DNA from: an uncultured bacterium
GTDB taxonomy: Bacteria > Patescibacteriota > Minisyncoccia > Phycocordibacterales > Phycocordibacteraceae
NCBI GenBank assembly: GCA_963759775.1
Contig: CAVXAH010000002.1
Span: 1 to 36,867 of the forward strand
Length of the DNA stretch: 36,867 bases
Direction: 5' to 3'
Position 1 is the first letter of the stretch. Each line of letters begins with the position of its first letter. Below are positions 2,413 through 32,563 of the stretch, piece by piece. The notes beneath the pieces were generated by a model. That model was not told the DNA's origin, did no database searches, and was given only the letters and a program-made list of their open reading frames with translations. Made by a program: the position numbers and the translations under genes.

Positions 2413-2422
2413 TACTGAGACC

Positions 2423-4912
2423 ATGGCGCGCGGGAACGATGAGAAGAAGGGTGGTAAGTATTCGCCGGAAGACATCCGTCCGGTGGGCTCAAGCGTAATC
2501 TCGCAACCGATCGTGAGCGAGATGCGCACCTCGTATCTTGACTACGCGATGTCGGTCATCACCTCGCGCGCACTTCCGGACGTGCGCGACGGCCTGAAGC
2601 CGGTGCACCGCCGTATTCTTTTTGCGATGCGTGAGATGGGACTCACTCCTTCGGTAAAGTTCCGTAAGTCAGCGACGGTGGTCGGCGAAGTGCTCGGCAA
2701 ATACCACCCACACGGCGACACCGCAGTGTATGACTCAATGGCAAAAATGGCACAAGACTTTTCGTACCGCTACCCGCTCGTGCTCGGACAAGGAAACTTC
2801 GGCTCAATAGACGGCGACTCTCCGGCCGCCATGCGCTACACCGAAGCAAAGATGTCGCGCCTTTCCGACGAGCTTCTCAGAGACCTTGAAAAAGAAACGG
2901 TGGAGTGGAATCCTAACTACGACGCGACTCGCGAAGAGCCGAAGGTGCTTCCGGCAGCGCTTCCGAACCTACTTTTGAATGGCACGCTTGGTATTGCGGT
3001 CGGCATGGCGACCAACATCCCTCCACACAACCTGCGCGAAGTCGTGGATGCGACGGTGCATCTCATAGAGAACCCTGACGCATCTACCGAAGACCTGCTC
3101 GCCTATGTCAAAGGTCCTGATTTTCCACTTGGCGGCGTGGCGTTCAACCAAACCGACATCAAGCATGCGTACGCAAACGGCAAAGGCCCCGTGGTAGTGC
3201 GCGGCGAAGCGGAAATAGTGGACGACGGCAAGAAAGACTCCAAAATAATCATCACCTCAATCCCGTATCGCGTAAATAAATCAGAGCTCATTACGAAAAT
3301 CGCAGAGCTCGTCACGGAAAAGAAGATTGAGGGCATTCGCGACCTTCGCGACGAGTCAACGAATGACATCCGCATCGTGGTGGAACTCAAGGGCACGGCG
3401 CATCCGCAAGCAGTACTCAACAATTTGTATAAATACACTGAGCTTGAGGCCGCATTCCACTACAACATGCTCGCGCTTGTGGATGGAGTTCCGCAGACGC
3501 TCTCACTAAAGAGCATGCTGGAAGAATTTATCGACCACCGACAGACGGTGGTGAAGCGTCGCACGGAGTATGATCTCAAGAAAGCGGAAGAACGCGAGCA
3601 TATTTTGCTCGGTCTCTCAAAAGCACTTGATCATATTGATGAGGTGATTGCGGTTATTAAGAAGTCCGCAGATGTGGAGAGCGCGAGCGCGGCACTCCAG
3701 AAAAAGTTTGGTTTCTCGGCACTCCAGGCCGCCGCCATTCTTGAAATGCGTCTCTCAAAGCTCGCGGGTCTTGAGCGCAAGAAGATAGAAGACGAGCTTA
3801 CTGAAGTGCAGGCACTCATCAAAAAGCTCAAGGAAATTCTTTCTTCAGCGAAGAAGATTCTTGCCGTGGTGAAAGCGGAGTTGGTGGAAGTGGGAACAAA
3901 ATACGGAGACGACCGTCGCACCAAGATAGTGAAGGGTGGGGTCAAAAACATGTCTATGGAAGACCTCGTACCGGACGAAGAGTCAGTGCTTGTCCTCACT
4001 GCGGGCGGCTACGTGAAGCGGACAAACCCAAGCGAGTACAAGGTGCAAAAGCGCGGTGGCGTTGGCGTCGTTGATATCGCAACCAAAGAAGAAGATGTGG
4101 TGACGCACTTCCTCGTTACCTCCGCCCACAGCGACCTCCTTTTCTTTACGGACTACGGCAAGTCGTACCAACTCAAAATGTATGAGATTCCGGAAGGGAA
4201 ACGCGCAACCAAAGGAAAGAGCATTATGAATTTCCTACCTCTTGCTGCTGACGAGAAGGTTACCTCTATCCTCCCCGTGCAAAAGGGTGCGGCGTGGGCT
4301 GCGCTTTCCATAGCGTTTGTGACCGAGCAGGGTGTGGTGAAGAAGGTCGCCGCGAAGTCGTTCTCTGATGTGCGGCGTTCGGGCATCATTGCTATCAGCC
4401 TCAAGGGCGCGGACAAACTCGTTTCCGCAAATCTCGCCGGAGAAGGCGACAGTATTTCAATAGTGACGAAGAAAGGTCAGTCAATTCGTTTTGACGAAGG
4501 CGACGTGCGACAGATGGGACGCACCGCGGGCGGCGTGCGCGGTATGAGTCTTAAGAAAGGCGACGAGGTTGTTTCGGCGGAAGTAATTCCCGCAGACGCG
4601 AAAGATGCCTCGCTTCTCGTCATCATGAGCAAAGGCTACGGCAAGCATACGACGATGGACGAATACAAAATACAGGGTCGCGGCGGCTCGGGTATTAAGA
4701 CTTCGGAAGTAACGCCAAAAACAGGCGAGATCATCGGTGCAAAAGTCGTGGTGGGGAACCTCGAGGAGCAAGAGATTGTGGTCATTTCTAAGAAAGGGCA
4801 AGTGATACGCACGGTAGTATCCGGCATCCCATCGCTCTCGCGCGCGACACAGGGTGTGCGGGTGATGAAGTTGTACGAGGGCGACTCCATCGCCTCAATG
4901 GTTGCTCTTTAA
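2423..4912 (+). CDS. gyrA: DNA gyrase subunit A
   Basis: [29 protein letters not shown] catalytic Tyr, GyrA-box QKRGGVG, C-terminal pinwheel repeats. Confidence 0.98.
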
Positions 4913-5035
4913 GAACGCGATAAAAGTTCCGTCTGCTTTGTTGCGGGTCCCGCCGATTTCTTCCGTCGTACCTCATGTACGCCTACAGAAATCGACTTCC
5001 CGCGCCTCGCATCCGGAGCCTTTTCTCCGCGTTCT
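4912..5035. repeat. MITE-like palindromic element, family A copy 1
   Basis: Ends AGAACGCG/CGCGTTCT are inverted repeats; the 73-nt core (4939-5011) aligns ungapped to 32467-32539 (60/73 identical by eye); central CGTAC-N4-GTACG. Confidence 0.75.
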
Positions 5036-5056
5036 ATAAGACTCATTCGAGCGCGG

Positions 5057-5248
5057 CGTGCTCCAAAACGGAAACTCGCGTGAGGCGAGGTGAAAATCAA
5101 CGAGCCGAGTAGGAAAACCGTGCTGTTTGAGCGAAGCCTGACCACACTTCTGAGTGTGACAGGCGAAGCGAGTTCACGATTTTCCGTTAAACGAGGCGAC
5201 TATGATTTTCCCTTGCCGGAAGCGGGGCTGGTTCCGTTTTGGAGTACG
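5057..5248. repeat. Long nested inverted-repeat element (MITE-like or structured RNA)
   Basis: CGTGCTCCAAAACGGAA (5057-5073) vs TTCCGTTTTGGAGTACG (5232-5248); nested GAAAATC/GATTTTC, GGAAAACCGTG/CACGATTTTCC and GCCTG-CACAC/GTGTG-CAGGC pairs. Confidence 0.65.
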
Positions 5249-5292
5249 GCGAGCGAGAAGTGTTGTACCCCAGAGCATGGTATTTTATAAAG

Positions 5293-5841
5293 ATGAGTCA
5301 GCACTTTAGCGACCCGCGCGAGGCCGTCCTCCAGCTTGCTCTTAAAGACGGAATGCGCGTCGCAGATTTGGGGAGCGGCACAGGGCATTATGCAAACACA
5401 GCCGCGAGTGTGGTGGGGAAAAGCGGGAAGGTGTACGCCGTTGATGTCCTCGAAGATGTGCTCACGCACGCAAAAGGCGAGCACGGGCACCTTCACCACC
5501 ATCACCGGCAGGGCATAGTGGAGTCCGTGTGGGGAGATATTGAAAAACATGCCGGCACGAAAATCCGCGAACACTCGGTTGACGCGGTAATCCTCGCAAA
5601 TACTCTTTTTCAAATACAAAACCGCGATGGTCTTCTCGGAGAAATAAAGCGCATCATCAAACCCGGCGGTAAACTCCTTGTCGTTGATTGGGCAGGGGCA
5701 TACGGCGGCTTAGGACCCTCTCCGCTTCAAGTGGTTTCCGAGCACGAGGCGGAAGCACTCTTTATTGGTGCTGGTTTTCATAAAACAAAGACCTTCAGGT
5801 CAGGACCGCACCACTACGGTATAATTCTCACTGCGCCATGA
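5293..5841 (+). CDS. Class I SAM-dependent methyltransferase
   Basis: VADLGSGTG motif I, VYAVD, IIKPGGKLLVVDW; ATG 5293 preferred over TTG 5239, which lies inside the repeat. Confidence 0.9.
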   Translation: MSQHFSDPREAVLQLALKDGMRVADLGSGTGHYANTAASVVGKSGKVYAVDVLEDVLTHAKGEHGHLHHHHRQGIVESVWGDIEKHAGTKIREHSVDAVILANTLFQIQNRDGLLGEIKRIIKPGGKLLVVDWAGAYGGLGPSPLQVVSEHEAEALFIGAGFHKTKTFRSGPHHYGIILTAP

Positions 5842-7148
5842 ACGGTATCCCTCTATTTAAAATAATTCTGGTCGGTTTTTTTGTGATTGGCGGCTTGGTT
5901 GGTCTTTTCGTATTTTCTACTTACAAAGGAGATGGCGGAGACACGGCGGGAGTTGGGAATGTGTTGGTGTGGGGAGTTCTTCCGCAGGAGGACGTGCAGG
6001 ACGCGCTCAACTCAATAAGTGTTTTCAATAGGAGCATACAAGGCGTCTTGTACACCAGACACGACGTGGACCGATTTGAAAATGACCTTTCAACGGCGAT
6101 TGCAACCGGGAACAGCCCCGATCTCGTTCTCATTTCTCAAGAACAACTACTCTCGCTCCGAAATCTTCTTCAGGTTATTCCACCCGCAGCGCTCTCCACG
6201 CGCACGTTTCAAAGTACGTTCGTAGACGAAGGTCAGCTCTTTCAGGCACCGAACGGTATGTATGGCGTGCCCTTCCTCGTTGATCCGCTGGTGCTTTACT
6301 ACAACAAATCAATTCTCTCTTCCGCGGGTATTGCAACCCCACCCTCAAGTTGGGAAGCGATGACGGGACTTGTGCCCAAGGTCACCGTTCTCTCGTCTGC
6401 GGGGAAAATCACACGCTCGCTCATCGCACTTGGGAGCTACGACAACGTGACGAGTGCACGAGGCATCCTTTCGGCACTTTTCCTCCAAACAAGAGTGCCG
6501 CTCTCAACACTTTCAAACACGGGTGTGCTCGGCGCATCGCTTGGAAGTGAGACAGCAACAGGAAGCGGAACGCCGCCCGGAGAATCAGTAGTGCGCTTCT
6601 ACACGCAATTCGCAGACTCAACAAAACTTTCCTACACCTGGAATGCGTCGCTTCCAAGCTCCGAGCACGCATTCCAGGTGGGCGATCTTGCGCTCTATCT
6701 TGGATACGCGTCTCGCGCACGATTCCTCAAAGAGGCAAACCCGAACCTCAACTTTGATGTCGCGCCGCTTCCGCAGGCGAAGAATGCAACCACCAAGACA
6801 ACCTACGGCCTTACGTATGCGTTTGCGCTTCCGCGCGGCGCTAAAAACCCGGGAGGTGGTCTTCAGGCGGCGCTTCTCCTTACGGGTTCGGCTGAGCAGC
6901 AAACCGCAGTTCGCGCCACCGGCCTTGCTCCCACGACGCGCGCGGTCATAAGCCAAGGTACAGACGACCCCGTCCTCTCAGTTGCCTACACATCTGCGCT
7001 CTACGCAAAGGGATGGCTGTCCCCAGCACCAGCCCGCACAAATCAGGTTTTTGGAGCTATGATTACGAACGTGACGAGCGGACGTCTTACGATTCAAGAA
7101 GCGCTTGGGGCGGCTGAAGGCTCGCTCAACGCACTCCTTCAACAATGA
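5838..7148 (+). CDS. Extracellular solute-binding protein (ABC sugar-binding family), N-terminally anchored
   Basis: N-terminal TM helix, PDLV, YGVPFLVDPLVLYYNK, PPSSWE, FDVAPLPQ. Confidence 0.85.
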   Translation: MNGIPLFKIILVGFFVIGGLVGLFVFSTYKGDGGDTAGVGNVLVWGVLPQEDVQDALNSISVFNRSIQGVLYTRHDVDRFENDLSTAIATGNSPDLVLISQEQLLSLRNLLQVIPPAALSTRTFQSTFVDEGQLFQAPNGMYGVPFLVDPLVLYYNKSILSSAGIATPPSSWEAMTGLVPKVTVLSSAGKITRSLIALGSYDNVTSARGILSALFLQTRVPLSTLSNTGVLGASLGSETATGSGTPPGESVVRFYTQFADSTKLSYTWNASLPSSEHAFQVGDLALYLGYASRARFLKEANPNLNFDVAPLPQAKNATTKTTYGLTYAFALPRGAKNPGGGLQAALLLTGSAEQQTAVRATGLAPTTRAVISQGTDDPVLSVAYTSALYAKGWLSPAPARTNQVFGAMITNVTSGRLTIQEALGAAEGSLNALLQQ

Positions 7149-7567
7149 AAACACCTCTAGCAAAATTGGTTTTTTGTGCACTATGTGTTCTTTCATTTGC
7201 TCCAATTGCTTTTGCTGTTGATCTTGGTCCCGCACCAGGGAACAGCCAAGGGGTTGATAATGGCCCGGCTCCGTCCTCAAGCGGCAACGGTGGTGCACTC
7301 CAAAATCCACTCGGCCCGGGAGTCGGACTCGAGGACCTGATTATCAAAGTTTTGCAATTCGTTGCGCAAATAGGAGCAATCGTAGTTGTCTTTATGTTGG
7401 TATATGTCGGTTTTCTGTTTGTAGTTGCGCGTGGCGAGCCGGGTAAGATCGCCGAGGCGCGACAGGCACTTATGTGGACGGTTATTGGCGCTCTTGTACT
7501 TTTGGGAGCCGTCGCAATCGCGGAAGGCATCAAAGCAACAGTGCAGGCACTTTCGGCAGGGAACTAA
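7145..7567 (+). CDS. TrbC/VirB2-like pilin
   Basis: Signal peptide, LQNPLG, two TM helices linked by ARGEPGKIAEARQALMWTVIG. Confidence 0.8.
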   Translation: MKTPLAKLVFCALCVLSFAPIAFAVDLGPAPGNSQGVDNGPAPSSSGNGGALQNPLGPGVGLEDLIIKVLQFVAQIGAIVVVFMLVYVGFLFVVARGEPGKIAEARQALMWTVIGALVLLGAVAIAEGIKATVQALSAGN

Positions 7568-7573
7568 ACACAC

Positions 7574-7825
7574 ATGACATTCAAAAGTTTTGTAGACGGC
7601 CTTATCAATCTCGGGAACGTGGTTGTCATACCAGTCATCTTTACACTCGCATTTCTGGTGTTCATTTGGGGCCTATATAAATACTTCATTTGGGGTGCGG
7701 AAAACGACGAGGAGCGTGCGAAGGGCAGGCGGTTTCTTCTCTGGGGACTCCTTGGCATGGCACTTCTGCTTTCTGTGTGGGGCGTATTGAACTTACTGTT
7801 ATCCACGCTTGGGTTTTCCCCATAG
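7574..7825 (+). CDS. TrbC/VirB2-like pilin (short)
   Basis: AFLVFIWG..GAENDEERAKGRRFLLWGLLG..SVWG shared family motif. Confidence 0.8.
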   Translation: MTFKSFVDGLINLGNVVVIPVIFTLAFLVFIWGLYKYFIWGAENDEERAKGRRFLLWGLLGMALLLSVWGVLNLLLSTLGFSP

Positions 7826-7851
7826 CCCTCGGAAGTGTCATACTTATCTTC

Positions 7852-8304
7852 ATGAAATCCTTTCAACGTGCCGCCTCGCTCCTGGTGCTGTCTGTCGCTC
7901 TCGCTCTTCCTTCCTATGCCGCCGCGGCTGTTACCGTGAGCGGGTGCGCGTACATTGGCGGTCTTTGTGGTTGCTACGACGGCAATGGAGACTGGCGTAT
8001 AAGCACCAACCCAGCGGCGTGTAGCCAGATCGGGGGCTTTGCAGGGAACATCATTTACGTCATTAACAACATTCTGGTCCCACTCCTTTTCGCCGTCGCC
8101 TTCATTGTCTTCCTTTGGGGTATTTTCAAGGCCTATATTTATAACGCAGGCGACGAGGCGGGGCGCGAGCAGGGTCATAAGCTTGTTTTGTGGGGCCTCA
8201 TCGGGTTTGCCGTCATGCTCTCCCTGTGGGGACTGGTAAACGTGGTTGCCAATACGTTTGGTCTCAGTGGCTACTCCGCTCCGCGAACACCAACATCGTA
8301 CTAA
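7852..8304 (+). CDS. TrbC/VirB2-like pilin with a 4-Cys insert
   Basis: ATG 7852 gives a signal peptide (MKSFQRAAS..YAAA), Cys loop, then the AFIVFLWG...LWGLIGF core. Confidence 0.8.
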   Translation: MKSFQRAASLLVLSVALALPSYAAAAVTVSGCAYIGGLCGCYDGNGDWRISTNPAACSQIGGFAGNIIYVINNILVPLLFAVAFIVFLWGIFKAYIYNAGDEAGREQGHKLVLWGLIGFAVMLSLWGLVNVVANTFGLSGYSAPRTPTSY

Positions 8305-8309
8305 GTGTT

Positions 8310-8948
8310 ATGAAGATTTACCGCGCCTCTGCTCTCGTCCTAGTATCTGCACTTTTTTTCGCTGCTCCTTTTACAGCAGGAGCACAAGTCAATTGCGAAG
8401 TTGAAGGATGCGTATGGAGTTCATCCCTAAGCGTTTGCACCTGTACCACACCCGCGTGTGCGGAGAAGGGCTGTTATCCGCAAGATTCGTGCAGTTCTGG
8501 TGCGTGTACGAACGAAGCAAATTGCGATGTTAACGAAAGATGTGACAATCCGGCTGGTCAGTCATGTAGCGGAGATTGTGTTCCTCGCGGGAGCGGCGGA
8601 AGTGGATTTAACAGCGGAGGAGGAGGGGGTATCAATACCCAGCTTCTCGAGCGGGACTATGTGGCTAAATTTATTAATTTTGTAAACGGTGCTCTTGTTC
8701 CAGCACTCATTGCAATCGCTTTCATCGTCTTCCTGTGGGGAGTATTTAAATATCTCATCTGGGGTGCGGATGACGAAGCGGATCGTTCAACAGGCCGGAA
8801 ATTCATTCTTTGGAGTGTTATAGGTTTTGCGGCCATTTTCTCGGTGTGGGGTATGGTAAATGTTGTCACAAGTCTTTTTGGCTTCAAAGCCGGACAAGGC
8901 GCGTCTAATTACGGCATTCACCCTCCGACTTTTCCGGAGAATCAGTAA
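8310..8948 (+). CDS. TrbC/VirB2-like pilin with a 12-Cys extracellular insert
   Basis: ATG 8310, signal peptide ending AGA-Q, 12 Cys, Gly-rich linker, then the AFIVFLWG pilin core. Confidence 0.8.
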   Translation: MKIYRASALVLVSALFFAAPFTAGAQVNCEVEGCVWSSSLSVCTCTTPACAEKGCYPQDSCSSGACTNEANCDVNERCDNPAGQSCSGDCVPRGSGGSGFNSGGGGGINTQLLERDYVAKFINFVNGALVPALIAIAFIVFLWGVFKYLIWGADDEADRSTGRKFILWSVIGFAAIFSVWGMVNVVTSLFGFKAGQGASNYGIHPPTFPENQ

Positions 8949-8954
8949 GACTCA

Positions 8955-9009
8955 TTATCCACACACCCCCCGAAGCGTATTGACCAGCTTCAAGATAAAG
9001 CGCTACAAT
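8955..9009 (+). promoter_or_regulatory. Perfect DnaA box (TTATCCACA 8955-8963) upstream of promoter TTGACC-18-TACAAT
   Basis: Motifs read directly upstream of the 9036 pilin. Confidence 0.5.
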
Positions 9010-9035
9010 ATACCTGTTATTCGCTTACTCACACT

Positions 9036-9404
9036 ATGAAAAAAGCCCTTATTAATGGTTTTGGCCTTACCGCCGCATTTGCATTGCCACTGTTTGCTTT
9101 CGCTCAGACTGTGAGAGACATTTCTTCTGCCGGCCAGCTTGTTATTGACATCATCAATAACGTCCTTGTCCCAGTACTCTTTGCGGTCGCCTTTATCGTC
9201 TTCCTCTGGGGTGCCTTCAAGACTTTCATCTTGGGTGCCAACAGTGAAGAAGTTAAGGAGCAGGGTAAGAACCTCATGCTTTGGGGCCTCATAGGCTTTT
9301 TCGTCATGGTGTCTGTCTGGGGTCTCGTGAACATCCTCACCGGCTCAGTGACCTTCGGAAACAACCAAGGTCCAAACCTCCCAGGCGCAGGCAAGATCAA
9401 ATAG
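9036..9404 (+). CDS. TrbC/VirB2-like pilin, probable major subunit
   Basis: Signal peptide ending AFA-Q, pilin core, own promoter and strong terminator. Confidence 0.85.
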   Translation: MKKALINGFGLTAAFALPLFAFAQTVRDISSAGQLVIDIINNVLVPVLFAVAFIVFLWGAFKTFILGANSEEVKEQGKNLMLWGLIGFFVMVSVWGLVNILTGSVTFGNNQGPNLPGAGKIK

Positions 9405-9423
9405 TTTAGGCTCGTGGAGAGCA

Positions 9424-9456
9424 GAAAACCCCGGTCGCCCTGCGACCGGGGTTTTC
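9424..9456 (+). terminator. Intrinsic terminator
   Basis: GAAAACCCCGGTCGC-CCT-GCGACCGGGGTTTTC. Confidence 0.85.
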
Positions 9457-9509
9457 CCATTTTGTACCCTTGGAACTATTCGCCATAGGCTATATGCTAA
9501 GTGGTATAC

Positions 9510-9806
9510 ATGTCAGTCCTGAATTCATTTCTTGGAAAAGTAGTTGAGCAAATAGTGAACCCACTTATCCTGCTTCTCTCCGCGGCGGCATTCATCGTAT
9601 TTCTCTGGGGTATTTTTGTATTTATTAAAGATTCGGCAGACGAGAACAAAAGGGAAGAGGGTCGACACGCCATTATGTGGGGGCTTATGGGGCTTGTCAT
9701 TATCTTCGGTGCATATGGGATTATCAACCTTGCCCTCGGGACTTTTGGGAACGACTGTACGGTTGAGCAAATTAGTGCAGGACAGTGTGAAACGAGGCTA
9801 CCGTAG
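9510..9806 (+). CDS. TrbC/VirB2-like pilin
   Basis: AFIVFLWG..DSADENKREEGRHAIMWGLMG; C-terminal Cys pair. Confidence 0.8.
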   Translation: MSVLNSFLGKVVEQIVNPLILLLSAAAFIVFLWGIFVFIKDSADENKREEGRHAIMWGLMGLVIIFGAYGIINLALGTFGNDCTVEQISAGQCETRLP

Positions 9807-9835
9807 AGTCGTCTAACTTGGAAATAAAAAATAAA

Positions 9836-9861
9836 AAGCCGCGGTAGTAACACCGCGGCTT
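9836..9861 (-). terminator. Intrinsic terminator (likely bidirectional)
   Basis: AAGCCGCGGT/ACCGCGGCTT stem followed by a long T-run on the minus strand. Confidence 0.8.
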
Positions 9862-9874
9862 AAAGTTTTTGCAT

Positions 9875-10804
9875 TTACAGCACAGGACAGGGAGCAGGTG
9901 CCAGTAGGTACCGGAAAACGGCTTCGCCATTTTCCACTCTGACGCGATAGTACGCTTTCCCATCGCTATCATCTCTCTGTACGATGAAGCCAGAGTTGCT
10001 ACACATCCGAAGTCCCGAGATGTCTTCGCCAGGCACCGAACCAATCCTTTCGGATAGGGTCGTTTTGGCTACACATTCTCGGACGCCAGCTGCAGTTGCA
10101 TCTGGGCATTGCACCCGAGTGTTCATGACGGTACGCGACATCTTCACGACATCGGGCGCACGAAGCCAACCAACAAACGGTACGATGATGAACAAAATGA
10201 GCAACGCGCTCATAATGGCCATGCCGGCAGAGTCTTTGTGCCCCGTAAACGCGAATGCGGCGAAGACGAGCGCAAAGGCAAGCAGGATCGCAAACCAATA
10301 CCGATAGGTCAGCGTGCCCACTTCTGCCGCAGTTGGCGAAGGAATGGCGGTTGGCAGAAAGTTTGTTGCCGAACTCCAAAACCACCAAGTCAGACCAGCT
10401 GCAAACAACAAGAAGACAGCTCCTGCTGTCCATGCCCACGTTCGAGCTGCCGGTGCTGTTCCATGATGCCAGATCGTGTAGAGAATAACGCCAAGCCCAA
10501 CAATCCCAGCGATGATGCCCAAGACTGTCAGTAGTCCCCAAAAAACATTAATGGGTTCTAGAAGCCAAGGAACACCTCCGCCAAAAAGGATCAGTAGTAG
10601 CGGCGGGAGGCTGAGGCAGAGCAGAACTACATGTTTAGGATTCATTCCTTTTACCTCCTTGCGATACCAACTCGACATTTTCATGTCAATTGCTTTGAAG
10701 GTTGAAACCCCAAAGCGCTTCGCATCTTTCCCTTTGGTGCCGAGCTTCGTGAGAAGCTCGGCACCTCGGTTTCGGATGCTTTCCCACTTCATCCACATTT
10801 TCAT
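9875..10804 (-). CDS. Hypothetical multi-pass membrane protein with a C-terminal Cys-containing domain
   Basis: About 5 hydrophobic segments; GAGGAG SD; 15 nt downstream of the SPFH gene. Confidence 0.7.
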   Translation of the reverse strand: MKMWMKWESIRNRGAELLTKLGTKGKDAKRFGVSTFKAIDMKMSSWYRKEVKGMNPKHVVLLCLSLPPLLLILFGGGVPWLLEPINVFWGLLTVLGIIAGIVGLGVILYTIWHHGTAPAARTWAWTAGAVFLLFAAGLTWWFWSSATNFLPTAIPSPTAAEVGTLTYRYWFAILLAFALVFAAFAFTGHKDSAGMAIMSALLILFIIVPFVGWLRAPDVVKMSRTVMNTRVQCPDATAAGVRECVAKTTLSERIGSVPGEDISGLRMCSNSGFIVQRDDSDGKAYYRVRVENGEAVFRYLLAPAPCPVL

Positions 10805-10819
10805 CAGGCTCTCCTCGCG

Positions 10820-11989
10820 TTAGACCGTTTTTGCAAGTCGATCGACTAGACCGACGAGTTTGTCTGGTATAACGACCGTAGTTCCGCCCTTCTCTCCGGT
10901 TCTCTCGAGTGCTTCGAGTCGCCGGATTTCCATGCGTTTTTCCTGATCGTTTCCCGCGATAGATCCGTAGACGATGTCGATGCGCTTTTTTTCAGCTTCG
11001 GCGCGGATTCGGATTGCTTCCGCTTCCCCAACAGCTTTCGCTGCTTCGGCCTTACCGGTTTGGGTTTCCACATAGATTTTAGTAGTTGCTTCTTCAAAGT
11101 CTTTTACGACTTTGTCGTCTGCGAAACCAAATCGATGTATTTTCGCCGCGTCAACCGTGACGCCGTAGGCTTCTTTCAAATCCACGCTTCCTCCAATATC
11201 GCCTGCGGTACCATCGCCCAAGGCCTTGATGAGTGCCTCAAGCGTGTAGGACTTCTTCTCCCCCTCACTACCGTCGGGGTTGCGTATCGCAAGCATTGCC
11301 GGCGTGCTACTTGTTATTTCATCGTACTCGAGCGAACCAGCATAGCGAATGACCATTTGACTCATCGCTGCCGACGTTCGCTGAAGCCAATCTTCTCCGG
11401 AAAACAACGCTTTGTAGGGATTGGTGATCCGGATAGTGACCACGAGGACGAACTTGAGTGGAACACCGCTTTTCGTCTTAACGTCAAGGAAGGTGAAGTA
11501 GTAGTTGAAAGCATTAATGTAGATGAAGCGGGTTCGCCCCTCATCACCGTCGTCCGTTGTCGGATTCTTTTTTGTTGCTCGACGTGTGATAGGAACGACA
11601 TTGCCGCTGTCGTCCTGCTTTCCTTCCGTCCAACTGAAGTCGTAACTATAGATCTTGAACCATGGCCAAATACCGACCCAGTAGATGCCAAAAGGCTCCA
11701 TCCAATTGAGCGGATTGAAGTAATTCAGCAAAGGTTTCGCCCCATCGTTCTCGATGATCTCATAGTTATCGAATGGATCTTCTGAGCTTTCGCCACCTTT
11801 TGCGCGATGACCTTTCCAGGCGACGATCATCTCATGAACAGTATTACCCCGCATGACAAACTCCGCCGTTCCTTCAAGGGGAGCGGTGAAATACGTCTTC
11901 GCTTGCGCAATAAAGTGCACAAGCAGTGCAAGCCCGACGAGACCAACGACGTAGATGCCGATTGATACTCCAAGTTCGAATCCAGACAT
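10820..11989 (-). CDS. SPFH/Band-7 (stomatin/prohibitin-like) domain protein
   Basis: N-terminal TM; DVKTKSGVPLKFVLVVTIRITNPYKAL..DW..R resembles the SPFH core; AEA-rich coil AVGEAEAIRIRAEAE; GAGGT SD before ATG 11989. Confidence 0.7.
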   Translation of the reverse strand: MSGFELGVSIGIYVVGLVGLALLVHFIAQAKTYFTAPLEGTAEFVMRGNTVHEMIVAWKGHRAKGGESSEDPFDNYEIIENDGAKPLLNYFNPLNWMEPFGIYWVGIWPWFKIYSYDFSWTEGKQDDSGNVVPITRRATKKNPTTDDGDEGRTRFIYINAFNYYFTFLDVKTKSGVPLKFVLVVTIRITNPYKALFSGEDWLQRTSAAMSQMVIRYAGSLEYDEITSSTPAMLAIRNPDGSEGEKKSYTLEALIKALGDGTAGDIGGSVDLKEAYGVTVDAAKIHRFGFADDKVVKDFEEATTKIYVETQTGKAEAAKAVGEAEAIRIRAEAEKKRIDIVYGSIAGNDQEKRMEIRRLEALERTGEKGGTTVVIPDKLVGLVDRLAKTV

Positions 11990-12343: not shown

Positions 12344-13486
12344 TTATTCAACGACTCGCCGTAGGTGCGGAGGAACGTGTACAAGCACATCGTAGGGAAT
12401 GCGGCCAGTTTGAGTGGCAATAGAGCGCACGGAATTTATCGCGTTTGGGTCGCGACTTATGACGATGACCGTATCTCCGGGTTTCGTTTCTGGAATATCA
12501 GTAACATCAAGACTCGTCATGTTCATAGAAACGCGTCCGGCAATTGGCGCGGCTTTTCCACGAACCAACATGCTTCCCGTATTGGAAAGTCGGCGATCAA
12601 TACCCTCAAAATAGCCGGTGGGGAGCGTTGCGACCTTTGTGGGGCGTAGGGCGGTAAAGGTGGCGTTGTAGCCGACATGTTCACCAAGCGGCACATCGCG
12701 AACCGAGCTTACGATAGTTCTAAGTTCAAGAACAGGTTTAAGCGAGACCTTACTTTCTGGGGAAGTATCAAGACCGTAAAGTCCGATACCAAGACGCGCT
12801 ACGCGTGCACCCGTCTCATTTCCAAATCGCACTCCTTTGGTTGCGGCAAAATGTGTGTGAGTGATGTCGGGAAAGGCGGTGAGCACTTGTGGCGCCATCT
12901 CGTTCCACAACGCGCGCTGCCCGTCGGTAAGCGGAGAGATTTTAGAATCAGCATCTCCCATGTGCGAACAAAGTCCTACAATGCGTATGAAGGGGTGATG
13001 CTTGAACATGTGTATGACTTCCGCAAGATCACCCTTCGTTATGCCGTGGCGATGCATGCCGGTATCAAGTTTCAAGTGAAGCTCAATTGGTTTTCGAGCT
13101 CCTTTCGCAAGCGCACGCGCTTGTTCAATATCAACCAGAGTGAATGCGGTATTTTTGAGGCGGTTTCTTACAATGTCTTCAGGGCGCACATACCCCATCA
13201 CGAGAATGGGCGAGTGCACGTCGTAAGCACGAAGTTGTCGCGCTTCGTAATATGAATCAACGACAAAGAATGCGATTTTTTCATGGTCGAGAATAGTTGC
13301 GACCTCCGTAAGCCCATGCCCGTATGCATTGCTTTTCAATACGGGCGCAAAGGAAAGAGAAGGGAATTCGTGCTGGTATGTATGTAAGTTGTGAAGAAGG
13401 TTCTCGCGCGAGATAGACACCTCAACCAGAGGAACCGTGCGATCAAACGATTTTCGTAGCGCGCGTAAGTAAGAGAAAAGTTTCAT
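12344..13486 (-). CDS. alr: Alanine racemase
   Basis: VLKSNAYGHG PLP lysine motif, HLKLDTGMHRHG, VGYNATF, GRVSMN. Confidence 0.95.
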   Translation of the reverse strand: MKLFSYLRALRKSFDRTVPLVEVSISRENLLHNLHTYQHEFPSLSFAPVLKSNAYGHGLTEVATILDHEKIAFFVVDSYYEARQLRAYDVHSPILVMGYVRPEDIVRNRLKNTAFTLVDIEQARALAKGARKPIELHLKLDTGMHRHGITKGDLAEVIHMFKHHPFIRIVGLCSHMGDADSKISPLTDGQRALWNEMAPQVLTAFPDITHTHFAATKGVRFGNETGARVARLGIGLYGLDTSPESKVSLKPVLELRTIVSSVRDVPLGEHVGYNATFTALRPTKVATLPTGYFEGIDRRLSNTGSMLVRGKAAPIAGRVSMNMTSLDVTDIPETKPGDTVIVISRDPNAINSVRSIATQTGRIPYDVLVHVPPHLRRVVE

Positions 13487-13489
13487 TTT

Positions 13490-13645
13490 GGTACAGGTAT
13501 ATTACTCCGCTCGAACCTATTTTACCCGAAACCCGAACCCTTAACTCGCGCCTCGCAGACTCGGCGCTCGCCCGAGCCCTGTCCGCACTTTTCTTTTTTG
13601 TTTTTCGTGGGGGGGGGTGAATGCAATGCAAGTGGAGCGGCAGGG
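13490..13645 (+). repeat. attL element arm (arm A, 156 bp); exact inverted copy at 15920-16075
   Basis: Base-by-base reverse-complement match including the G9/C9 run. Confidence 0.95.
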
Positions 13646-13785
13646 CTCGGGGAACGGCTCAGTTTCTTCCCTAAATGGCTCACATGGGAAGAAATGAGCC
13701 GTTCCATGCAAATGCGTATTTGTGGTCTCTGGGCTGTTTTAGCCGCTTTGTGGAGTTGTCCGGTGCTCAGGCATCTCACCCCTCG

Positions 13786-14098
13786 GCATCCGCCTCGGGG
13801 CTGTTTCCGCTAGGGCTACGAACGCCTAGGTTCGTTAGTGCCGCCTTATCCTCGCACTCCCACACTGCTGTGTGGGAGCTCGGGGCGGCTCTTGTTTGGG
13901 GGAAGGAAGGAATCCTTCCCCCAGCTCGGGACTCCTCCTCGTGCCTTCGGAGTCCGCCCCTCGCACAACCCCCATCCACGTTTGCATGTTTAGAGTGTGT
14001 GGTGTCGCCTCCGCTTCAAACCCGTTTCTGCTAGCTGACCACGGCGTTCGTCCTTTCGCACTGGACGCTCCTAGCGGAAACAGCCCCGAGGCAAATGC
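13786..14098. other. Highly structured non-coding segment (candidate ssDNA origin or ncRNA)
   Basis: Perfect 23-bp closing stem (13792-13814/14070-14092), inner 9-bp stem (13818-13826/14043-14051), hairpins at 13857-13878 and 13898-13922. Confidence 0.6.
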
Positions 14099-14303
14099 AT
14101 AATGCTTGCCCCAGAGTTTGCGTGAGGACACGCAAACTCTTTCCCGCCCGTGCGCGCATGCACCGCCTGATGGCGGCTCCCTTTACAGAAAATACACAAA
14201 GAGCATACTTGGCAATGACTCCCTGGAATATGGGTACACCATCGTCGATTGATGGAAAACTGCCTGAACAAGGCGTCAAAATTACCAAACAGTTTCGAAG
14301 CAT

Positions 14304-14480
14304 ATGGAAAGCAAAGTAAAAGGCGTACTGCCTGCTCCAGCACACCTTGCTGAGTGTGTACGAGGTCTAGCAAATCTGACTTCGACAGTAAAACCGCTTA
14401 TTGAAATAACACACAGTACCGTCATTCCAGAAAAATCAGAAAAGCAAATTTCATCGGAATCTGGAAGATCTTCAATCTGA
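14304..14480 (+). CDS. Possible 58-aa small protein (MESKVKGVLPAPAHLAECVRGL...)
   Basis: Open frame followed by a terminator-like hairpin at about 14493-14530; no homology recognised. Confidence 0.3.
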   Translation: MESKVKGVLPAPAHLAECVRGLANLTSTVKPLIEITHSTVIPEKSEKQISSESGRSSI

Positions 14481-14574
14481 TCGCTAAAGAACAAACACAA
14501 AAGGCACCGATTGGTGTCTTTTATGTTTTATCAACTAACTTCTCACGTCTTATTCCGTTAAGGCGACTTAAAAT

Positions 14575-15881
14575 CTAGTAGTTCAAATTGAACACTCGGT
14601 TCGCATTCAGTATCCTACCCAAGTTATCGTACTTACCTATTTGTACGGCAGAGGGAATACCCATGTAACAATCTCTGTCTGGATCTAGTGCAACGCCTCC
14701 CGAATTACCGGCCTCAATTTTTGCAGAGGTTGTGTAGTAAGGATCAGCGTATCCCGAAACTATCCCTTGTGTTGCAGTTGGTTGAGTAAAATTACCTGCA
14801 TAATCAGGGTATCCGAGCACTATTACGTTATCGCCTGTACGCGCTTGTGTCTCACAAATCGACAGATTCTTTCCTGCAACGCTAGTAAAATACGTGCTGC
14901 CGTTTGCAACAGGCAAAACTCCCCAGTCATACTCGGGGTTTATTTTTGTGTCACTACCATTTACTACATACGTGTTATTTCCATCTCCAGGGATTCCAAC
15001 GGCACATTCTGTAGCACCATATCCAGCCATATCAGTAATAACGTGCCTGTTTGTTATAACTACTATTGATGAGTCGTTAGAAAACCTCGTGACAAAACCA
15101 GAGCCAAAACCAAAGCTTCTATCTGAAAACTGGCACACAATAAGCGCAACGCTAGGGCTCCATTTCTGAATAACTGCAGGGAGTCCATTTTTTTGAGGAG
15201 GGTTTGTACGATCTTTTTGCATTGCTGCGAGTTGCTTTTTCAGACTCTCAATTTCTGCTTGCGTAAAGTCTGAAGCGGAGTTGTCTTCAACTATTTGGTT
15301 TTGGTTCGAAGATGAGAAGATTAAGGAATTTAGAAAAGAGTCCTCCAATCGTTTATCTTCGTTTCCCAAATAAAAACTATAGCCAAGCTGGTATAAATCG
15401 CTGCCTTTTACAATATCCCTCCCAAGATAGCAAACCTGCGCGTCGTTATTACACATAAGATAATCGATCGCGGGTAAACCCTTATATTTGGTCGGATTTG
15501 AGGAAATCAATCCATTAAAGCCCGCAAAGTCTTCTTGACTTGATGTGTACAGCAATTCATTTTTCAAGTTTTCTTCAGGGGTCAATCTTCGAGTTTGAAA
15601 ACGCAGAGCTTACATAAGCAGCAGAGAGAACGTATTTGTTGTCAGGATCATCATAACGGTAATTGTAACGCAGTGACATTATTTCCTTTGCCAAGTTCTT
15701 GATCTCTGACTGAGAGAATTGGTTGTCCTGGGAAAAGCATAGAGAAGTCACCATGTTCCATGTAATGGCCTTCTTGTTTGTGAGGTAGAAGATAAACTCC
15801 AACTCCAGCCAATACCAACAACAAAACAATAACCACTGGGTTATTGAAGTAGTTCAGGTTATTTTCTTGATTTTTTGCCAT
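14575..15881 (-). pseudogene. Membrane-anchored trypsin-like serine protease, split by two +1 frameshifts
   Basis: ORFs 15651-15881 (TM anchor), 15575-15829 and 14575-15585 (TNRHV, DWGVL, AGNSGG triad) overlap in successive frames. Confidence 0.65.
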
Positions 15882-15919
15882 GAATTTTTCTTAAGCCCAT
15901 TATAACTCCTAAACCCTCA

Positions 15920-16161
15920 CCCTGCCGCTCCACTTGCATTGCATTCACCCCCCCCCACGAAAAACAAAAAAGAAAAGTGCGGACAGGGCTCGGGCGAGCG
16001 CCGAGTCTGCGAGGCGCGAGTTAAGGGTTCGGGTTTCGGGTAAAATAGGTTCGAGCGGAGTAATATACCTGTACCCAGACAGATACTGAATCGGAATTTC
16101 CGGAATTTTCCCGCGCGGCGGCTACCGCCGCGTATAGAGGGTGCGCCGTGCCGGAGACTTT
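15920..16161 (-). repeat. Internal inverted copy of the reconstituted attP (arm B + GGTAC + arm A)
   Basis: 16071-16161 is the reverse complement of 18758-18848 (1 mismatch); 15920-16075 is the reverse complement of 13490-13645; degenerate similarity continues to about 16237. Confidence 0.92.
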
Positions 16162-16455
16162 AGTTCGAGAATACAAATACAAGCCCGAAGATTTTTTGAA
16201 GAAAAGAGAAGCGAATTTTTTGGCGGGGAGAGAGGGGAGTACCAAGAAGCCCAGAATGCTCGTGGTGTGCTTGCCCCTCCCGCCCGTGCGCGCACCTACT
16301 CCTTCGCTGGCGGGTCTGAAACCAGCGAAGCTCCCTTTTTGTTTTCTGATATAATTTAGGAGATCTAATATGATTTCCAAGACGTCATTGATATCTAAAT
16401 CGTCGAAATTACTGCTTTGCGCGGAAATTTTTGTTGCGTTTTCGTTGACTACTAC

Positions 16456-16504
16456 ACTGGATGAAGCTAAAATGCCGTTGAACGGCATTTTAGCTTCATC
16501 CAGT
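16456..16504. repeat. Perfect 49-bp palindrome (24-bp arms, 1-nt centre)
   Basis: ACTGGATGAAGCTAAAATGCCGTT-G-AACGGCATTTTAGCTTCATCCAGT. Confidence 0.95.
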
Positions 16505-16594
16505 TCTCCATTCTGATTTAATGGCTTAAATTAAGGATAATATGATAGTTGGGGAAATCATTGATTTTTCAGGTAGAAATTGCTAGTGTAGACG

Positions 16595-16669
16595 TAACAA
16601 GGGAGCTAATTGGAAGTCTTGTAAATAAAGGAGCGTGTCCTAGGTCTAGGGCCCGCTCCTTTGTTTTTT
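16595..16669 (+). ncRNA. Candidate small RNA convergent with the DUF3800 gene
   Basis: Promoter TTGATT(16561)-17-TAGTGT with extended TG; hairpin ACAAG/CTTGT (16597-16622); terminator AAAGGAGCG/CGCTCCTTT plus T-run. Confidence 0.45.
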
Positions 16670-17342
16670 ACCAAATTTTGTGGAGATATTTTTTGTCTAT
16701 CACTTTTCTTAAATCTTTGTTCTTACCAGTGAAATAGTCCTTCATCGCTCCGCTCACCAAGTCAGATAGCTGCATCGCATTTACATACTCCGAATCTACA
16801 TGGGTAATGTGTTTTATTCGTTTTATCGTCTTTCTATTAACGCGGTCAAAAAGATACTGATCAAATGCCGTGAAATAATCACCGTTCCACATCCGACGAT
16901 CGGCGCGGTCAATTACAACCTCTGCGCCCAAGAGGTTTTGTTTCTGCGCCGTAAATAGAACTAATTTCGACAAATTATAGTCGTCAAAAATGTTGTGCAA
17001 CTGAGTGTGTCCAGAAACAGCAAATTTGCCCTTGTATGTAGTTTTGTCGACGAGTCGATAATAAATAGGAATTTCCAGCTTATTTATGATCGCCAAGAGA
17101 TCCATATACATTGGTAACGGAATAAGGGTTGATTTTATTTCGCTTCTAAAACCGTATTTATGGCGTATCTCCATAATCTCGTTTTCGAGCGCAAATAGCT
17201 TTGTTGAATCAAGATAGACCGCTGACAGTATGTAAAACAAACTTGCTCCAGTTGGAATTTTGTTTCCAGACGCGTCAATTTCAAATGGCTTGCCCGGATC
17301 ACCCGACTCATCTACAAAAATGTAATGCTGGATATTAGCCAT
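16668..17342 (-). CDS. DUF3800 domain protein (RNase H-like fold)
   Basis: N-terminal YIFVDESG and C-terminal VDS...MQLSDLVSG signatures. Confidence 0.8.
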   Translation of the reverse strand: MANIQHYIFVDESGDPGKPFEIDASGNKIPTGASLFYILSAVYLDSTKLFALENEIMEIRHKYGFRSEIKSTLIPLPMYMDLLAIINKLEIPIYYRLVDKTTYKGKFAVSGHTQLHNIFDDYNLSKLVLFTAQKQNLLGAEVVIDRADRRMWNGDYFTAFDQYLFDRVNRKTIKRIKHITHVDSEYVNAMQLSDLVSGAMKDYFTGKNKDLRKVIDKKYLHKIW

Positions 17343-17386
17343 AAGTTAGAGCGGGTTTTTGGTCACGTCGATATATAATACAACTT

Positions 17387-18874
17387 ATGCAGTACTTCCT
17401 CTACGCCCGTAAAAGCACTGATGTCGAGGACAAACAAGTTCTCTCCATCGAAGCTCAACTTACCGAACTTCGCGCGCTCGCAGGGCGCGAACAACTCAAC
17501 GTCGTTGAGGTATTCATCGAAAAACAAAGCGCGAAGAAGCCGGGTCGTCCCGTGTTTAACGAAATGATGGCACGTATACAAAAAGGCGAAGCGCAGGGAA
17601 TCGTATGCTGGAAAATTGACCGTCTCGCGCGAAACCCTGTGGATGGCGGACAAGTCCAGTGGCTTCTTCAAAACAGCACCATTCGTCATATCCAAACCCA
17701 CGATCGCTCGTATTATCCAACCGACAACGTGCTTATGATGTCCGTCGAGCTTGGGATGGCGAATCAGTATATCCGCGATTTAAGTGTAAACACTGCACGG
17801 GGACTCCGTGCTAAGGCGCGGGAAGGGCATTTCCCCGGTACTGCGCCCTTTGGATACCGCAACAACAAGCACAAGAAGGTCATTGAGCTAGACCGCAAGA
17901 AATCAAAGGTCGTTCGCGCCGCATTTGTGCGCTATGCAAAAGGCGAATCGAGACTTGAAGATATTTCGCGTTTTCTATATGACAGCGGCGTCCGCAGTTT
18001 CGGCGGAAAACATCTCACCAAAAACCGCACCAAGTTCATCCTCCAAAATCCATTTTATTACGGCCAGTTCCTCTATGCTGGCGAACTCTATAACGGCCGT
18101 CACACGCCACTCATTTCCAAAGCTCTCTTCGACAAAGTACAGACGGTTCTACTGACCCGGAGCCACCCAAGCAAAGCAAAAACCGAGCCGCAAGTCTTTT
18201 GCGGTCTCATGTCTTGCGGCGAGTGCGGCATGGGTATCACCGCCGAGAAGCAGAAAGGCCATGTGTACTATCGCTGTACCAAAAAATCGTCGGCTCCGTG
18301 TTTCCAGCGCTATACGCGCGAAGAAACACTCGCCTCCGATTTTTCAGAGTTGATTTCCATGTTTGTCCTGCCCACAAAATGGGCACAGGACTTTCGCCGC
18401 AGGGCAGAAGAAGATGCAAAAGACACCGAGCGCGTCACAAGCGGCGCGGTTGCTGCCCTCCGCGATCAAATACGCGATCTCAACACCAAGCTCGATCGCC
18501 TTACCGATCTCTACATCGCCCAAGATATCGAGCGCGACGCATACTTAACGAAGCGTCGCGCACTCACATCCGACAAGCGTACGCTTGAAGAACAAATCCT
18601 CACTCTACAGAAAGACGGCGGAGCTTGGCTCGAACCCATGCGCGCGTGGATAAACCACGCGGAAATGCTAGAGAAAATCCAAAAAGACCCCTCTCTCCCC
18701 GCCAAAAAATCCGCCCTTCAAAAAATCTTCGGCTCGAACCTGAAACTCCAAAACCAAAAAGTCTCTGGCACGGCGCACCCTCTATACGCGGCGGTAGCCG
18801 CCGCGCGGGAAAATTCCGGAAATTCCGATTCAGTATCTGTCTGGGTACCAGGGGTGAGACTCGAACTCACATGA
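17387..18874 (+). CDS. Large serine recombinase (resolvase, recombinase, Zn-ribbon and coiled-coil domains)
   Basis: YARKS catalytic Ser, KIDRLARN, APFGY, NPFYYG, HTPLIS, CGECG...YYRC; the last codons are read antisense through tRNA-Leu. Confidence 0.95.
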   Translation: MQYFLYARKSTDVEDKQVLSIEAQLTELRALAGREQLNVVEVFIEKQSAKKPGRPVFNEMMARIQKGEAQGIVCWKIDRLARNPVDGGQVQWLLQNSTIRHIQTHDRSYYPTDNVLMMSVELGMANQYIRDLSVNTARGLRAKAREGHFPGTAPFGYRNNKHKKVIELDRKKSKVVRAAFVRYAKGESRLEDISRFLYDSGVRSFGGKHLTKNRTKFILQNPFYYGQFLYAGELYNGRHTPLISKALFDKVQTVLLTRSHPSKAKTEPQVFCGLMSCGECGMGITAEKQKGHVYYRCTKKSSAPCFQRYTREETLASDFSELISMFVLPTKWAQDFRRRAEEDAKDTERVTSGAVAALRDQIRDLNTKLDRLTDLYIAQDIERDAYLTKRRALTSDKRTLEEQILTLQKDGGAWLEPMRAWINHAEMLEKIQKDPSLPAKKSALQKIFGSNLKLQNQKVSGTAHPLYAAVAAARENSGNSDSVSVWVPGVRLELT

Positions 18875-18934
18875 GGATTTTAAAGGCCTCCGAAGGTTTT
18901 AAGCCTCCTACGTCTACCATTCCGTCACCCTGGC
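18846..18934 (-). tRNA. tRNA-Leu(TAA); integration target, now followed by CCC instead of CCA
   Basis: GCCAGGG/CCCTGGT acceptor stem, GGAGG-CTTAAAA-CCTTC anticodon arm, long variable arm. Confidence 0.93.
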
Positions 18935-18957: not shown

Positions 18958-19032
18958 TGGAGGCCCGGGCGGGAGTTGCACCCGCTCATCGAGGATTTGC
19001 AGTCCCCTGCGTTCCTATTTCGCCACCGGGCC
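18958..19032 (-). tRNA. tRNA-Cys(GCA) with encoded CCA
   Basis: GGCCCGG/CCGGGCC acceptor stem, anticodon loop CTGCAAA, U discriminator; atypical T-loop TGCAACT. Confidence 0.9.
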
Positions 19033-19740
19033 TTTTTGTTTCAAGATTCTCGGGATATCGCTTCTCAAAACACCCCGAAGCTCAAGATACTTTTCAAATA
19101 TAGCGTACTTTCTTCCCATGCATAATGCTTGCGTAAAACCACTTGGATACATGAACAGGAACAGTCGCAAGCTGTCACGAGTTGAATAACGCAATTGATA
19201 GGCACCTTTTGTGCTCCCATGTTTGTATAAACCTGAACCAACCATGCCAATGCGGATAACAAGCCAACGATGTAGGGCCATAAGAAATGCTCTGCTACCG
19301 CTCGTGAATATTGTAAGGAGACGTTTCGGCTTACCATGAACGACATCGATGTGTGCACAGCCATCACCATCGAAATATCCACGCACGAACGCGCTGAGGT
19401 AGGGTAGAGGCACCTTAGGAAACCTCATCGTCATTGATTTATGAGGAGTTACTCCGTGCGAAACAAGGCCGTCATACAACGCATGATTCCCGATACGGAG
19501 TAAATACTTGGTCTTGTGGTTATCTGTGCCGTCAATACGAATTATCGTATGACGAGAACCAAGCAAAGAGCGTATAGTATCGATTCTGTCCTTGTCAGTA
19601 CTGCTCACCCGCACATATTTACCGCGTATGCCAGAAGCGTTTTCAAGACTTCCGTCGGCATATAAATACCCAAGAACATAGGCAACTTCTTCGTTCCACG
19701 TATCAAAAAATTTCTCGTTTACAGAATATTTAACTCCCAT
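19015..19740 (-). CDS. Free-standing LAGLIDADG homing-endonuclease-family protein
   Basis: Two motifs AYVLGYLYADGS and AFVRGYFDGDGC; stop codon lies inside tRNA-Cys. Confidence 0.88.
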   Translation of the reverse strand: MGVKYSVNEKFFDTWNEEVAYVLGYLYADGSLENASGIRGKYVRVSSTDKDRIDTIRSLLGSRHTIIRIDGTDNHKTKYLLRIGNHALYDGLVSHGVTPHKSMTMRFPKVPLPYLSAFVRGYFDGDGCAHIDVVHGKPKRLLTIFTSGSRAFLMALHRWLVIRIGMVGSGLYKHGSTKGAYQLRYSTRDSLRLFLFMYPSGFTQALCMGRKYAIFEKYLELRGVLRSDIPRILKQKGPVAK

Positions 19741-19808
19741 CACTTCTTATGATAAGTGGTAACGATATATACTGCAATAAATGTGGGGTGGAAAACGATT
19801 TTTGAAAA

Positions 19809-32438: not shown

Positions 32439-32563
32439 TGATCCTGCTCTAAATCGCGCATTGCTGTGTTGCGGGTCCTGTCGATTTTTTCCGCCGTACC
32501 TTAGGTACGTCTCCAAAAACCGCCTGCCCGCGCCTTGCACTGCATCAATTTTCAGCAGGCTCA
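32439..32563. repeat. MITE-like palindromic element, family A copy 2
   Basis: Imperfect TIRs TGAtCCTGCT/AGCAGGcTCA; core homologous to 4939-5011. Confidence 0.75.

Follow-up and report, generated by a model that had tools for sequence, protein, structure and literature searches.

How an element that breaks its own integrase gene can leave its host again is an open problem, and it is posed here by a large serine recombinase (LSR) encoded in a 36,867-nt stretch of DNA (the window), one contig of a 632-kb genome, from an uncultured bacterium of the Patescibacteriota. As the preliminary description of this DNA had noted, the LSR frame crosses the crossover core and ends in the antisense strand of tRNA-Leu(TAA), the reading frame overlapping the tRNA gene at 18844-18934(-). 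The answer proposed here, which in our judgement could equally well prove right or wrong, is that crossover falls inside the last predicted helix of the enzyme, so that integration trims the tail and likely switches the enzyme off, and that the tail would come back, probably bringing activity for excision with it, once the gene-bearing segment is flipped at an inverted attP kept in reserve.

The region 13490-18848 is a mobile element of ~5.4 kb integrated at the end of the tRNA-Leu(TAA) gene, with the order attL, cargo X (a non-coding module and a protease gene), inverted attP, segment Y (DUF3800 and LSR genes) and attR (Table 1). It is recognised as an insertion because the alanine racemase gene (alr) that flanks attL adjoins tRNA-Leu(TAA) directly in 6/6 congener loci checked, and because a 151-nt contig from a related strain joins 13490 to 18845, the latter being weak with a short side of only 28 nt. 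A protein search in three relatives had found no alr; a DNA search then located it in congeners, with matches in 8/36. The start codon of alr lies 3 nt from attL (13484-13505) and in the empty site overlaps or follows the tRNA CCA, so that insertion parts alr from the tRNA transcript; its expression in the integrated state may depend on the P' arm.

Table 1. Coordinates of the element, its attachment sites, cargo and host flank within the window
Feature	Position	Strand	Remarks
Host flank: alanine racemase gene (alr)	12344..13486	-	Pfam; directly after tRNA-Leu in the empty site
Site 1 core GGTAC, attL (host B arm / P')	13490..13494	+	
P' arm, copy 1	13490..13645	+	Tail codons 13494-13544; motif GCTCGAACC at 13509-13517; then GC-rich stretch and T run
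Conserved non-coding module, putatively structured, at the attL end of X	13672..14167	+	
Cargo in X	14575..15881	-	Trypsin-like protease 14575-15585; two short overlapping ORFs 15575-15829 and 15651-15881
P' arm, copy 2, inverted	15920..16075	-	Tail codons 16021-16071; matches copy 1 at 156/156 nt
Core of site 2: the spare attP, intact and inverted (P / P')	16071..16075	-	
P arm of the spare site, repeating the 3' end of the LSR gene in inverted orientation	16071..16237	-	91 nt at 99%, 27 nt at 96%
Cargo in Y: DUF3800 protein	16668..17342	-	Pfam E 2e-10; weak PADLOC PDC-M04A match
Large serine recombinase (LSR), 495 aa	17387..18874	+	Resolvase, Recombinase and Zn ribbon domains; residues 1-487 element-encoded
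P arm within the LSR gene	18688..18848	+	
Site 3 core GGTAC, attR (P / tRNA B' arm)	18844..18848	+	
Integrated-form tail PGVRLELT, then stop	18848..18874	+	Antisense of tRNA acceptor and T arm; T-loop motif 18859-18867
Target tRNA-Leu(TAA)	18844..18934	-	Positions 1-73 intact; encoded CCA now CCC

The core GGTAC is common to all three junctions, and the two P arms form an inverted match over 170 nt at 85% overall. When 23 elements are compared, the letters common to B and P arms narrow to three, which places the crossover at tRNA positions 73/72; integration there leaves the tRNA body intact. Between 3 and 10 nt are shared around the element in 22/23 elements (5 nt in this one), and the short shared core with hybrid attL and attR that is expected of large serine recombinases is present.

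The enzyme itself carries PF00239, PF07508 and PF13408 above cut-off, the motif YARKS10 with the catalytic Ser, and the zinc-ribbon Cys residues. Long helices, as expected for the coiled coil of such enzymes, are predicted at 339-419 in an AlphaFold2 model, and the best fold match is SPbeta Int; NCBIfam scores for the Ccr and XisF families are below cut-off (CcrB 87.8/900, CcrA 78.8/700, XisF 96/375). A second, distant serine recombinase (25% identity) is found at the end of another contig (G000:C1:2-1405, minus strand). In the integrated state the LSR frame ends ...SVSVWV-PGVRLELT, and read over P/P' it ends ...SVSVWV-QVYYSARTYFTRNPNP (503 aa), each followed by a stop. Integration swaps a conserved 16-residue end for eight antisense-tRNA residues, and the tail QVYYSARTYFTRNPNP is encoded twice, once in each P' copy. 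The alternative tail had earlier been placed at 16021-16075; the tail is present there, its codons stopping at 16071 and the core at 16075. Similarly, the idea that inverting the LSR segment would switch the tail stands in that inversion would restore it and loci in the flipped orientation exist, but the arms concerned are P arms derived from the LSR 3' end and not B arms.

The distribution of this arrangement was surveyed in the phylum and beyond. LSR matches at E<=1e-60 occur in 99/401 phylum genomes, this one included, and the closest relatives are in records named Patescibacteria, Parcubacteria, Kaiserbacteria and Saccharibacteria. Loci were fetched for 68 of ~130 places in the phylum, together with 32/36, 21, and the best 80 of 585 from further searches; duplicates and 32 viral loci at <=34% identity were set aside. 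The resulting 203 loci yielded 166 LSR matches that extend to residue 440, of which 163 are non-redundant; kin among the loci are not independent, and the family figures below are counts and not tests. No close relative was found in viral, phage, plasmid and IMG/VR sets (0 loci; best 32%; best rows 24-28%), and a region search for full-length tailed relatives returned only three matches.

The LSR ends at a tRNA in 117/163 non-redundant loci, with 98 overlapping an ARAGORN gene (18 amino-acid types), 15 recognised by a T-arm motif and four stopping just before the tRNA. An inverted copy of the LSR end is present in 52/67 loci with at least 6 kb upstream. For 47 loci the sequence continues past the spare site: the attL copy of P' (35-333 nt, 89-100%) is present in 23, another 23 have none within the available sequence, and one further row was excluded. 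The P and spare-P arms have a median exact run of 95 nt across loci, and both arm pairs are kept nearly identical in the family. With relatives in 99/401 sampled genomes of the phylum, the element may rank among the principal vehicles of accessory genes in bacteria with such small genomes. An assembly artefact as the source of the three-site layout was considered and rejected: the empty site is found in congeners, and the same double-inverted layout in unrelated genomes means that it is neither chance nor a one-off misassembly.

Conservation of the attP-encoded tail across homologues had been proposed as a check. Fifty loci were picked by tRNA position alone, with no protein motif, of which 32 share the frame of the present LSR and 16 form a second class; the analysis covers these 48. 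In these 32 tails codons 1-11 are always stop-free and a stop follows at codon 12-17 in 31, compared with 4/32 and 1/32 having a stop at codons 12-18 in the other frames. Leu2 is encoded by all six Leu codons, Arg7 is present in 32/32 via five codons, and pN/pS is 0.52 (16 disjoint pairs) vs 0.82 and 1.01 in the shifted frames. The second class, which extends down to 34% LSR identity, has a stop at codon 12-20 in 14/16 and Arg7 in 15/16. The spare copy holds an intact in-frame tail in 69 loci. The signal has limits: a codon-position entropy test on the tail is not significant (p 0.063), and one reverse-strand frame reaches a pN/pS of 0.68, figures to be read beside a value of only 0.74 for the known coding P arm and synonymous sites near saturation. 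By codon usage and reading frame, the tail is nonetheless conserved as protein in both P' copies, and the proposed check came out positive: length and sequence are kept, with a coding signature.

The reading under which a conserved DNA-binding site yields the tail peptide only incidentally, or the three-site layout is a misassembly, is largely refuted by these data and hardly deserves credence. The R-T codons do overlap the CGAAC motif, with GCT and CGA preferred, and Ala6 is GCT in 23/23, so that DNA and protein constraints on the tail overlap. Synonymous codons nevertheless break the motif (AGA 6, CGT, CGC, CGG), pN/pS stays at 0.52 when the R and T codons are removed, and TAA, TAG and TGA are all used as stops, at several positions; as for misassembly, the layout recurs in 23 loci in which all sites are seen. 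A role of the spare copy as a small trans-acting protein was also considered and found unsupported: of the 150 best profile matches, 149 are short ORFs with a median of 84 aa, whose starts and upstream stretches lack conservation.

The tails acquired from tRNA genes are of a different kind. Over 71 loci their length ranges from 0 to 156 codons, with two outliers; they are rich in Pro and Gly, at 3.9 per 11 residues, and their hydrophobic moment is 0.22 vs 0.48 for attP tails. A swap that works at the level of protein or transcript could draw on this composition: the tail would stabilise the fold or bring a terminator, and the integrated gene would be silenced by antisense tRNA transcription or by proteolysis. 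Indeed, transcription of tRNA-Cys and tRNA-Leu runs toward the 3' end of the LSR gene, and a GC-rich stretch and T run follow the stop in the P' arm. We consider this explanation very improbable, as tRNA-derived tails of such varied length have no common end and so no shared degron, a terminator scan did not call the P' hairpin, and the Arg and Phe that are invariant in the attP tail suggest a specific contact.

What the tail might form was approached with AlphaFold2 on P0017, a natural relative with 71% identity and a near-identical tail. With tail-bearing alignment rows a helix is predicted at 491-508 (pLDDT ~87-93), which the crossover cuts after residue 496; the same tail falls to pLDDT <50 with an alignment of mostly tRNA tails, and confidence in the helix thus depends on the alignment. 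No contacts of the predicted helix are seen in the model. Structural alignments to the SprA, LI, phiC31 and Bxb1 integrases end at model residues 473-483 (rmsd 12-29 A, the ranges being indicative). These alignments stop before residue 491, and the swapped helix is therefore predicted to lie beyond the canonical serine integrase fold, while the tail-less LSR keeps everything that aligns to canonical integrases.

The attachment sites point to how the enzyme may find its targets. In B' the motif GCTCGAACC, at offset 11, is the antisense of the tRNA T-loop, and it is found again at offset 15 in P', the shift between attP and attB being +4 in 30/50 loci and +5 in 14/50. A comparable 5-bp shift of the zinc-ribbon domain (ZD) motif between attP and attB is reported for LI integrase (PMC3783163, in excerpt). 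In phage-type serine integrases each site has the distal motif on both of its arms; here P arms (n=32) and B arms (n=10) give scores for it similar to those of shuffled sequence. From this pattern we infer that the ZD binds the T-loop-like motif and that the enzyme would see mainly two kinds of site, x/P' and x/B'. With only two kinds, attL resembles attP, attR resembles attB, and integration, excision and inversion of Y become the same pairing, so that the att sites likely give no direction. P and P' do share a few inner positions (T6, A10, C11), and thus P is not wholly unrecognised, which limits the claim of one-sided sites. A palindromic core as the cause of inversion was rejected: the TA centre is palindromic here, but the junction codon varies (GTG 20, GAG 6, GCT 5, GTA 1 of 32), and a palindromic core is therefore not general.

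Taken with the conserved tail, these sites suggest the following cycle. Integration yields the order seen here, with the tRNA intact; the integrated LSR ends in arbitrary antisense-tRNA residues, and the attP tail is kept as protein in both copies of P'. The enzyme would read the T-loop-like motif on one arm per site, and with sites that give no direction, control would fall to the tail: the tailed form would be active and the tail-less form weak or off. The free circle makes only the tailed form, so the tailed form must integrate. A rare flip of Y, through residual activity or through host homologous recombination on the ~100-nt arms, could then return the active form, which would excise the element or flip Y back; this would explain the rarity of the tailed form. 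Against this cycle, the tail-less form retains all canonically aligned parts and may integrate well.

It is also conceivable that the tail is a tethered RDF-like helix near the coiled-coil hinge which adds excision, the tail-less form being an ordinary one-way integrase. SprA residues 536-537 align to model residues 478-479, just before linker and tail. RDFs are said to have no common structural theme in the excerpt consulted (PMC11795197), and the preliminary description had stated that no RDF gene is evident. This holds only insofar as a comparison of 389 ORFs, taken from 24 X and 47 Y segments, turned up no shared small ORF apart from an HTH gene; the element studied here has no such shared ORF. 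The small HTH gene (mostly 66-89 aa) occurs in 17 distant elements (L058, L060, L069, L071, L079, L086, L087, L239, L255, L259 and seven more), in which it is a candidate regulator, and was not found in this element. An excision-only role does not fit a free circle that makes only the tailed form at either attP. Moreover, a tail-less form able to pair x/P' with x/B' should flip Y freely, yet tailed forms amount to ~7%. A tethered RDF-like helix is judged unlikely, at about one chance in five.

The orientation of individual loci bears directly on the proposed flip. Of the 120 best proteins, nine end in the tail and 91 in an antisense T-arm peptide; the other 20 are of another kind or truncated. 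At the level of loci, 124 are tail-less, in five Y is flipped and the tRNA lies next to the inverted copy, and in four the LSR bears the tail, so that the tailed form accounts for nine loci against 124. Random orientation would give about half; even should some of the flipped cases prove spurious, the preference for the tail-less state is real. Four of the five flipped contigs end inside a repeat, and these may be path choices of the assembler. L185 and L186 are one element (100% over 2,661 nt) in which the spare arm joins P' in one assembly and tRNA-Leu in the other, an ambiguous case of real polymorphism or assembler choice. Two loci are robust to assembly: L082, flipped with both junctions on one contig and a longest exact repeat of 26 nt, with a different tail type and diverged arms, and L128, tailed, with a longest exact repeat of 49 nt. 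Inverted sites thus flank Y, and one of the five flipped loci is robust. The contigs of one population run with a 0.06 share contain no inversion joint, which carries no evidential weight.

Two other rearrangements were considered and rejected. Tandem insertion at attR as the source of tails finds no match, as 0/22 attL flanks matched the LSR profile. Free inversion of X was judged by the non-coding module, which adjoins attL in the eight complete elements that share it; it adjoins the spare site in L119 and L162, but long P' repeats leave both ambiguous. Two loci misfit a single insertion: L128 at 637-11252 has P/P' at both ends of Y, and L014 at 9760-11564 has tRNA-Ser at both ends of Y.

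Two features are unexplained by a switch in Y, namely the identity of the P' arms over 156 nt and the putatively structured module in X. The profile of this module (~500 nt) is found in 14/163 loci, some partial, and it has no Rfam match above the gathering score. Its long-range helix (13786-13814 / 14070-14098) has changes on both sides in 13/52 predicted pairs, which makes the module a candidate structured RNA or single-strand DNA origin. The motif TGCTTGCCCC...CCCGCCCGTGCGCGCA is present in two direct copies, at 14103-14160 (X) and 16268-16298 (Y), and also in relatives; as a guess, the copies could be a nick or transfer site. A perfect 49-nt palindrome is located at 16456-16504, and L007 has a different 42-nt palindrome at a similar distance from its spare site; palindromes are found in 2/29 segments.

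Such features raise the alternative that swapping the tail does turn the enzyme off, as for Mx8 or DsiB, but that the spare attP serves transfer or replication, by single-strand pairing or as a second integration site, with the flips being accidents or assembly choices. Arms that far exceed a binding site, both pairs nearly identical, a predicted single-strand structure in X with co-varying positions, and the ambiguity of most flipped loci would all suit this explanation. On the other hand, double-strand exchange on a snapped-back single-stranded circle would, by known chemistry, leave hairpin ends and not the layout observed; L082 is flipped with both its junctions on a single contig; and the intact in-frame tail of the spare copy in 69 loci also speaks against it. 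We regard a transfer or replication role as improbable, to the same degree as the RDF-like helix, and return to the own-gene flip as the preferred reading.

A self-rewritten integrase end is already known from Mx8, DsiB and the rumA ICEs. In the ssrA islands of Dehalococcoides, the 3' end of the LSR DsiB always overlaps att and, as here, reads antisense into a structural RNA gene, giving variable C-termini, and the authors suggest full function only on the circle (PMC3146451). Unlike here, DsiB targets tmRNA and belongs to a six-gene module with a second recombinase, and the excerpted account describes neither a conserved tail nor an inverted spare attP (PMC3146451). Similarly, attR lies within the serine integrase gene of streptococcal rumA ICEs, whose excised form differs in length and C-terminus; the C-terminus changes with integration as here, but these elements are conjugative and target a protein gene, and the available part of the paper mentions no spare site (PMC4701971).

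Integration lowers or ends activity in Myxococcus phage Mx8, whose attP lies within the integrase gene (Magrini 1999, cited in PMC4701971). An excerpted review of archaeal suicidal integrases, which likewise have attP inside the gene, calls the intact gene itself the RDF (PMC8371274). Both resemble the present element in having attP within their own integrase gene; as these sources describe them, they are tyrosine recombinases which lose 112 residues or the catalytic domain, compared with 16 residues here. The archaeal split separates the catalytic part, whereas residues 1-487 of this serine recombinase stay intact, and to regain activity the Mx8 and archaeal integrases depend on an intact gene arriving from outside or on inversion between two separate elements rather than on a site of their own.

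The phage integrases LI/A118, SPbeta SprA, phiC31 and Bxb1 share the domain order and fold with the LSR, as well as a distal motif that in attP lies 4-5 bp farther from the core than in attB. In these phage systems both arms bear the motif, attP pairs strictly with attB and the RDF is separate, whereas the LSR sites carry the motif on one arm and the LSR has a further predicted helix after the canonical end. TnpX/TndX of Tn4451 are described in excerpt as RDF-free serine recombinases (PMC5704250). Like the present element, Tn4451 with TnpX/TndX and SCCmec with CcrAB/CcrC are small integrative elements that integrate and excise by serine recombinases with no known RDF, although the NCBIfam Ccr score of the LSR (87.8 vs a cut-off of 900) sets it apart from CcrAB/CcrC. 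We know of no description of a TnpX/TndX or Ccr recombinase gene as cut by its att site.

In the open, non-subscription literature no account was found of this family, the conserved tail or an inverted spare attP, and the words 'tRNA' and 'Patescibacteria' do not occur in the consulted main text of a large LSR survey (10.1101/2021.11.05.467528). Accordingly, what appears undescribed is the conserved predicted helix, together with sites that carry the T-loop motif on one side and an inverted attP built into the element. The fuller picture, a self-contained switch, widespread in Patescibacteria, whose recombinase reads the universal tRNA T-loop on one arm and can be retargeted to almost any tRNA, loses an activating helix on integration and recovers it through inversion of its own gene at a spare attP, and in which neither att identity nor an RDF sets direction, is tentative, and we would put it at little better than one chance in three. 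An inverted attP that stores the true gene end would answer the exit problem directly, and an activity-gating helix beyond the canonical fold would, if true, add to the known control of direction in serine integrases. Self-limiting, tRNA-targeting integration tools are a possible application.

Several further features of the window were observed. The two short ORFs in 15575-15881 lie upstream of the protease gene; a single membrane-anchored protein may have been split into them by a frameshift. A free-standing LAGLIDADG-like gene is located at 19015-19743, just upstream of tRNA-Cys / tRNA-Leu. Elsewhere, a short hydrophobic coding unit is repeated within 7625-9616 in four to five diverged copies, at intervals of 400-620 nt, and an intergenic repeat of 78 nt with 82% identity occurs at 4934-5011 and 32462-32539, 27.5 kb apart.
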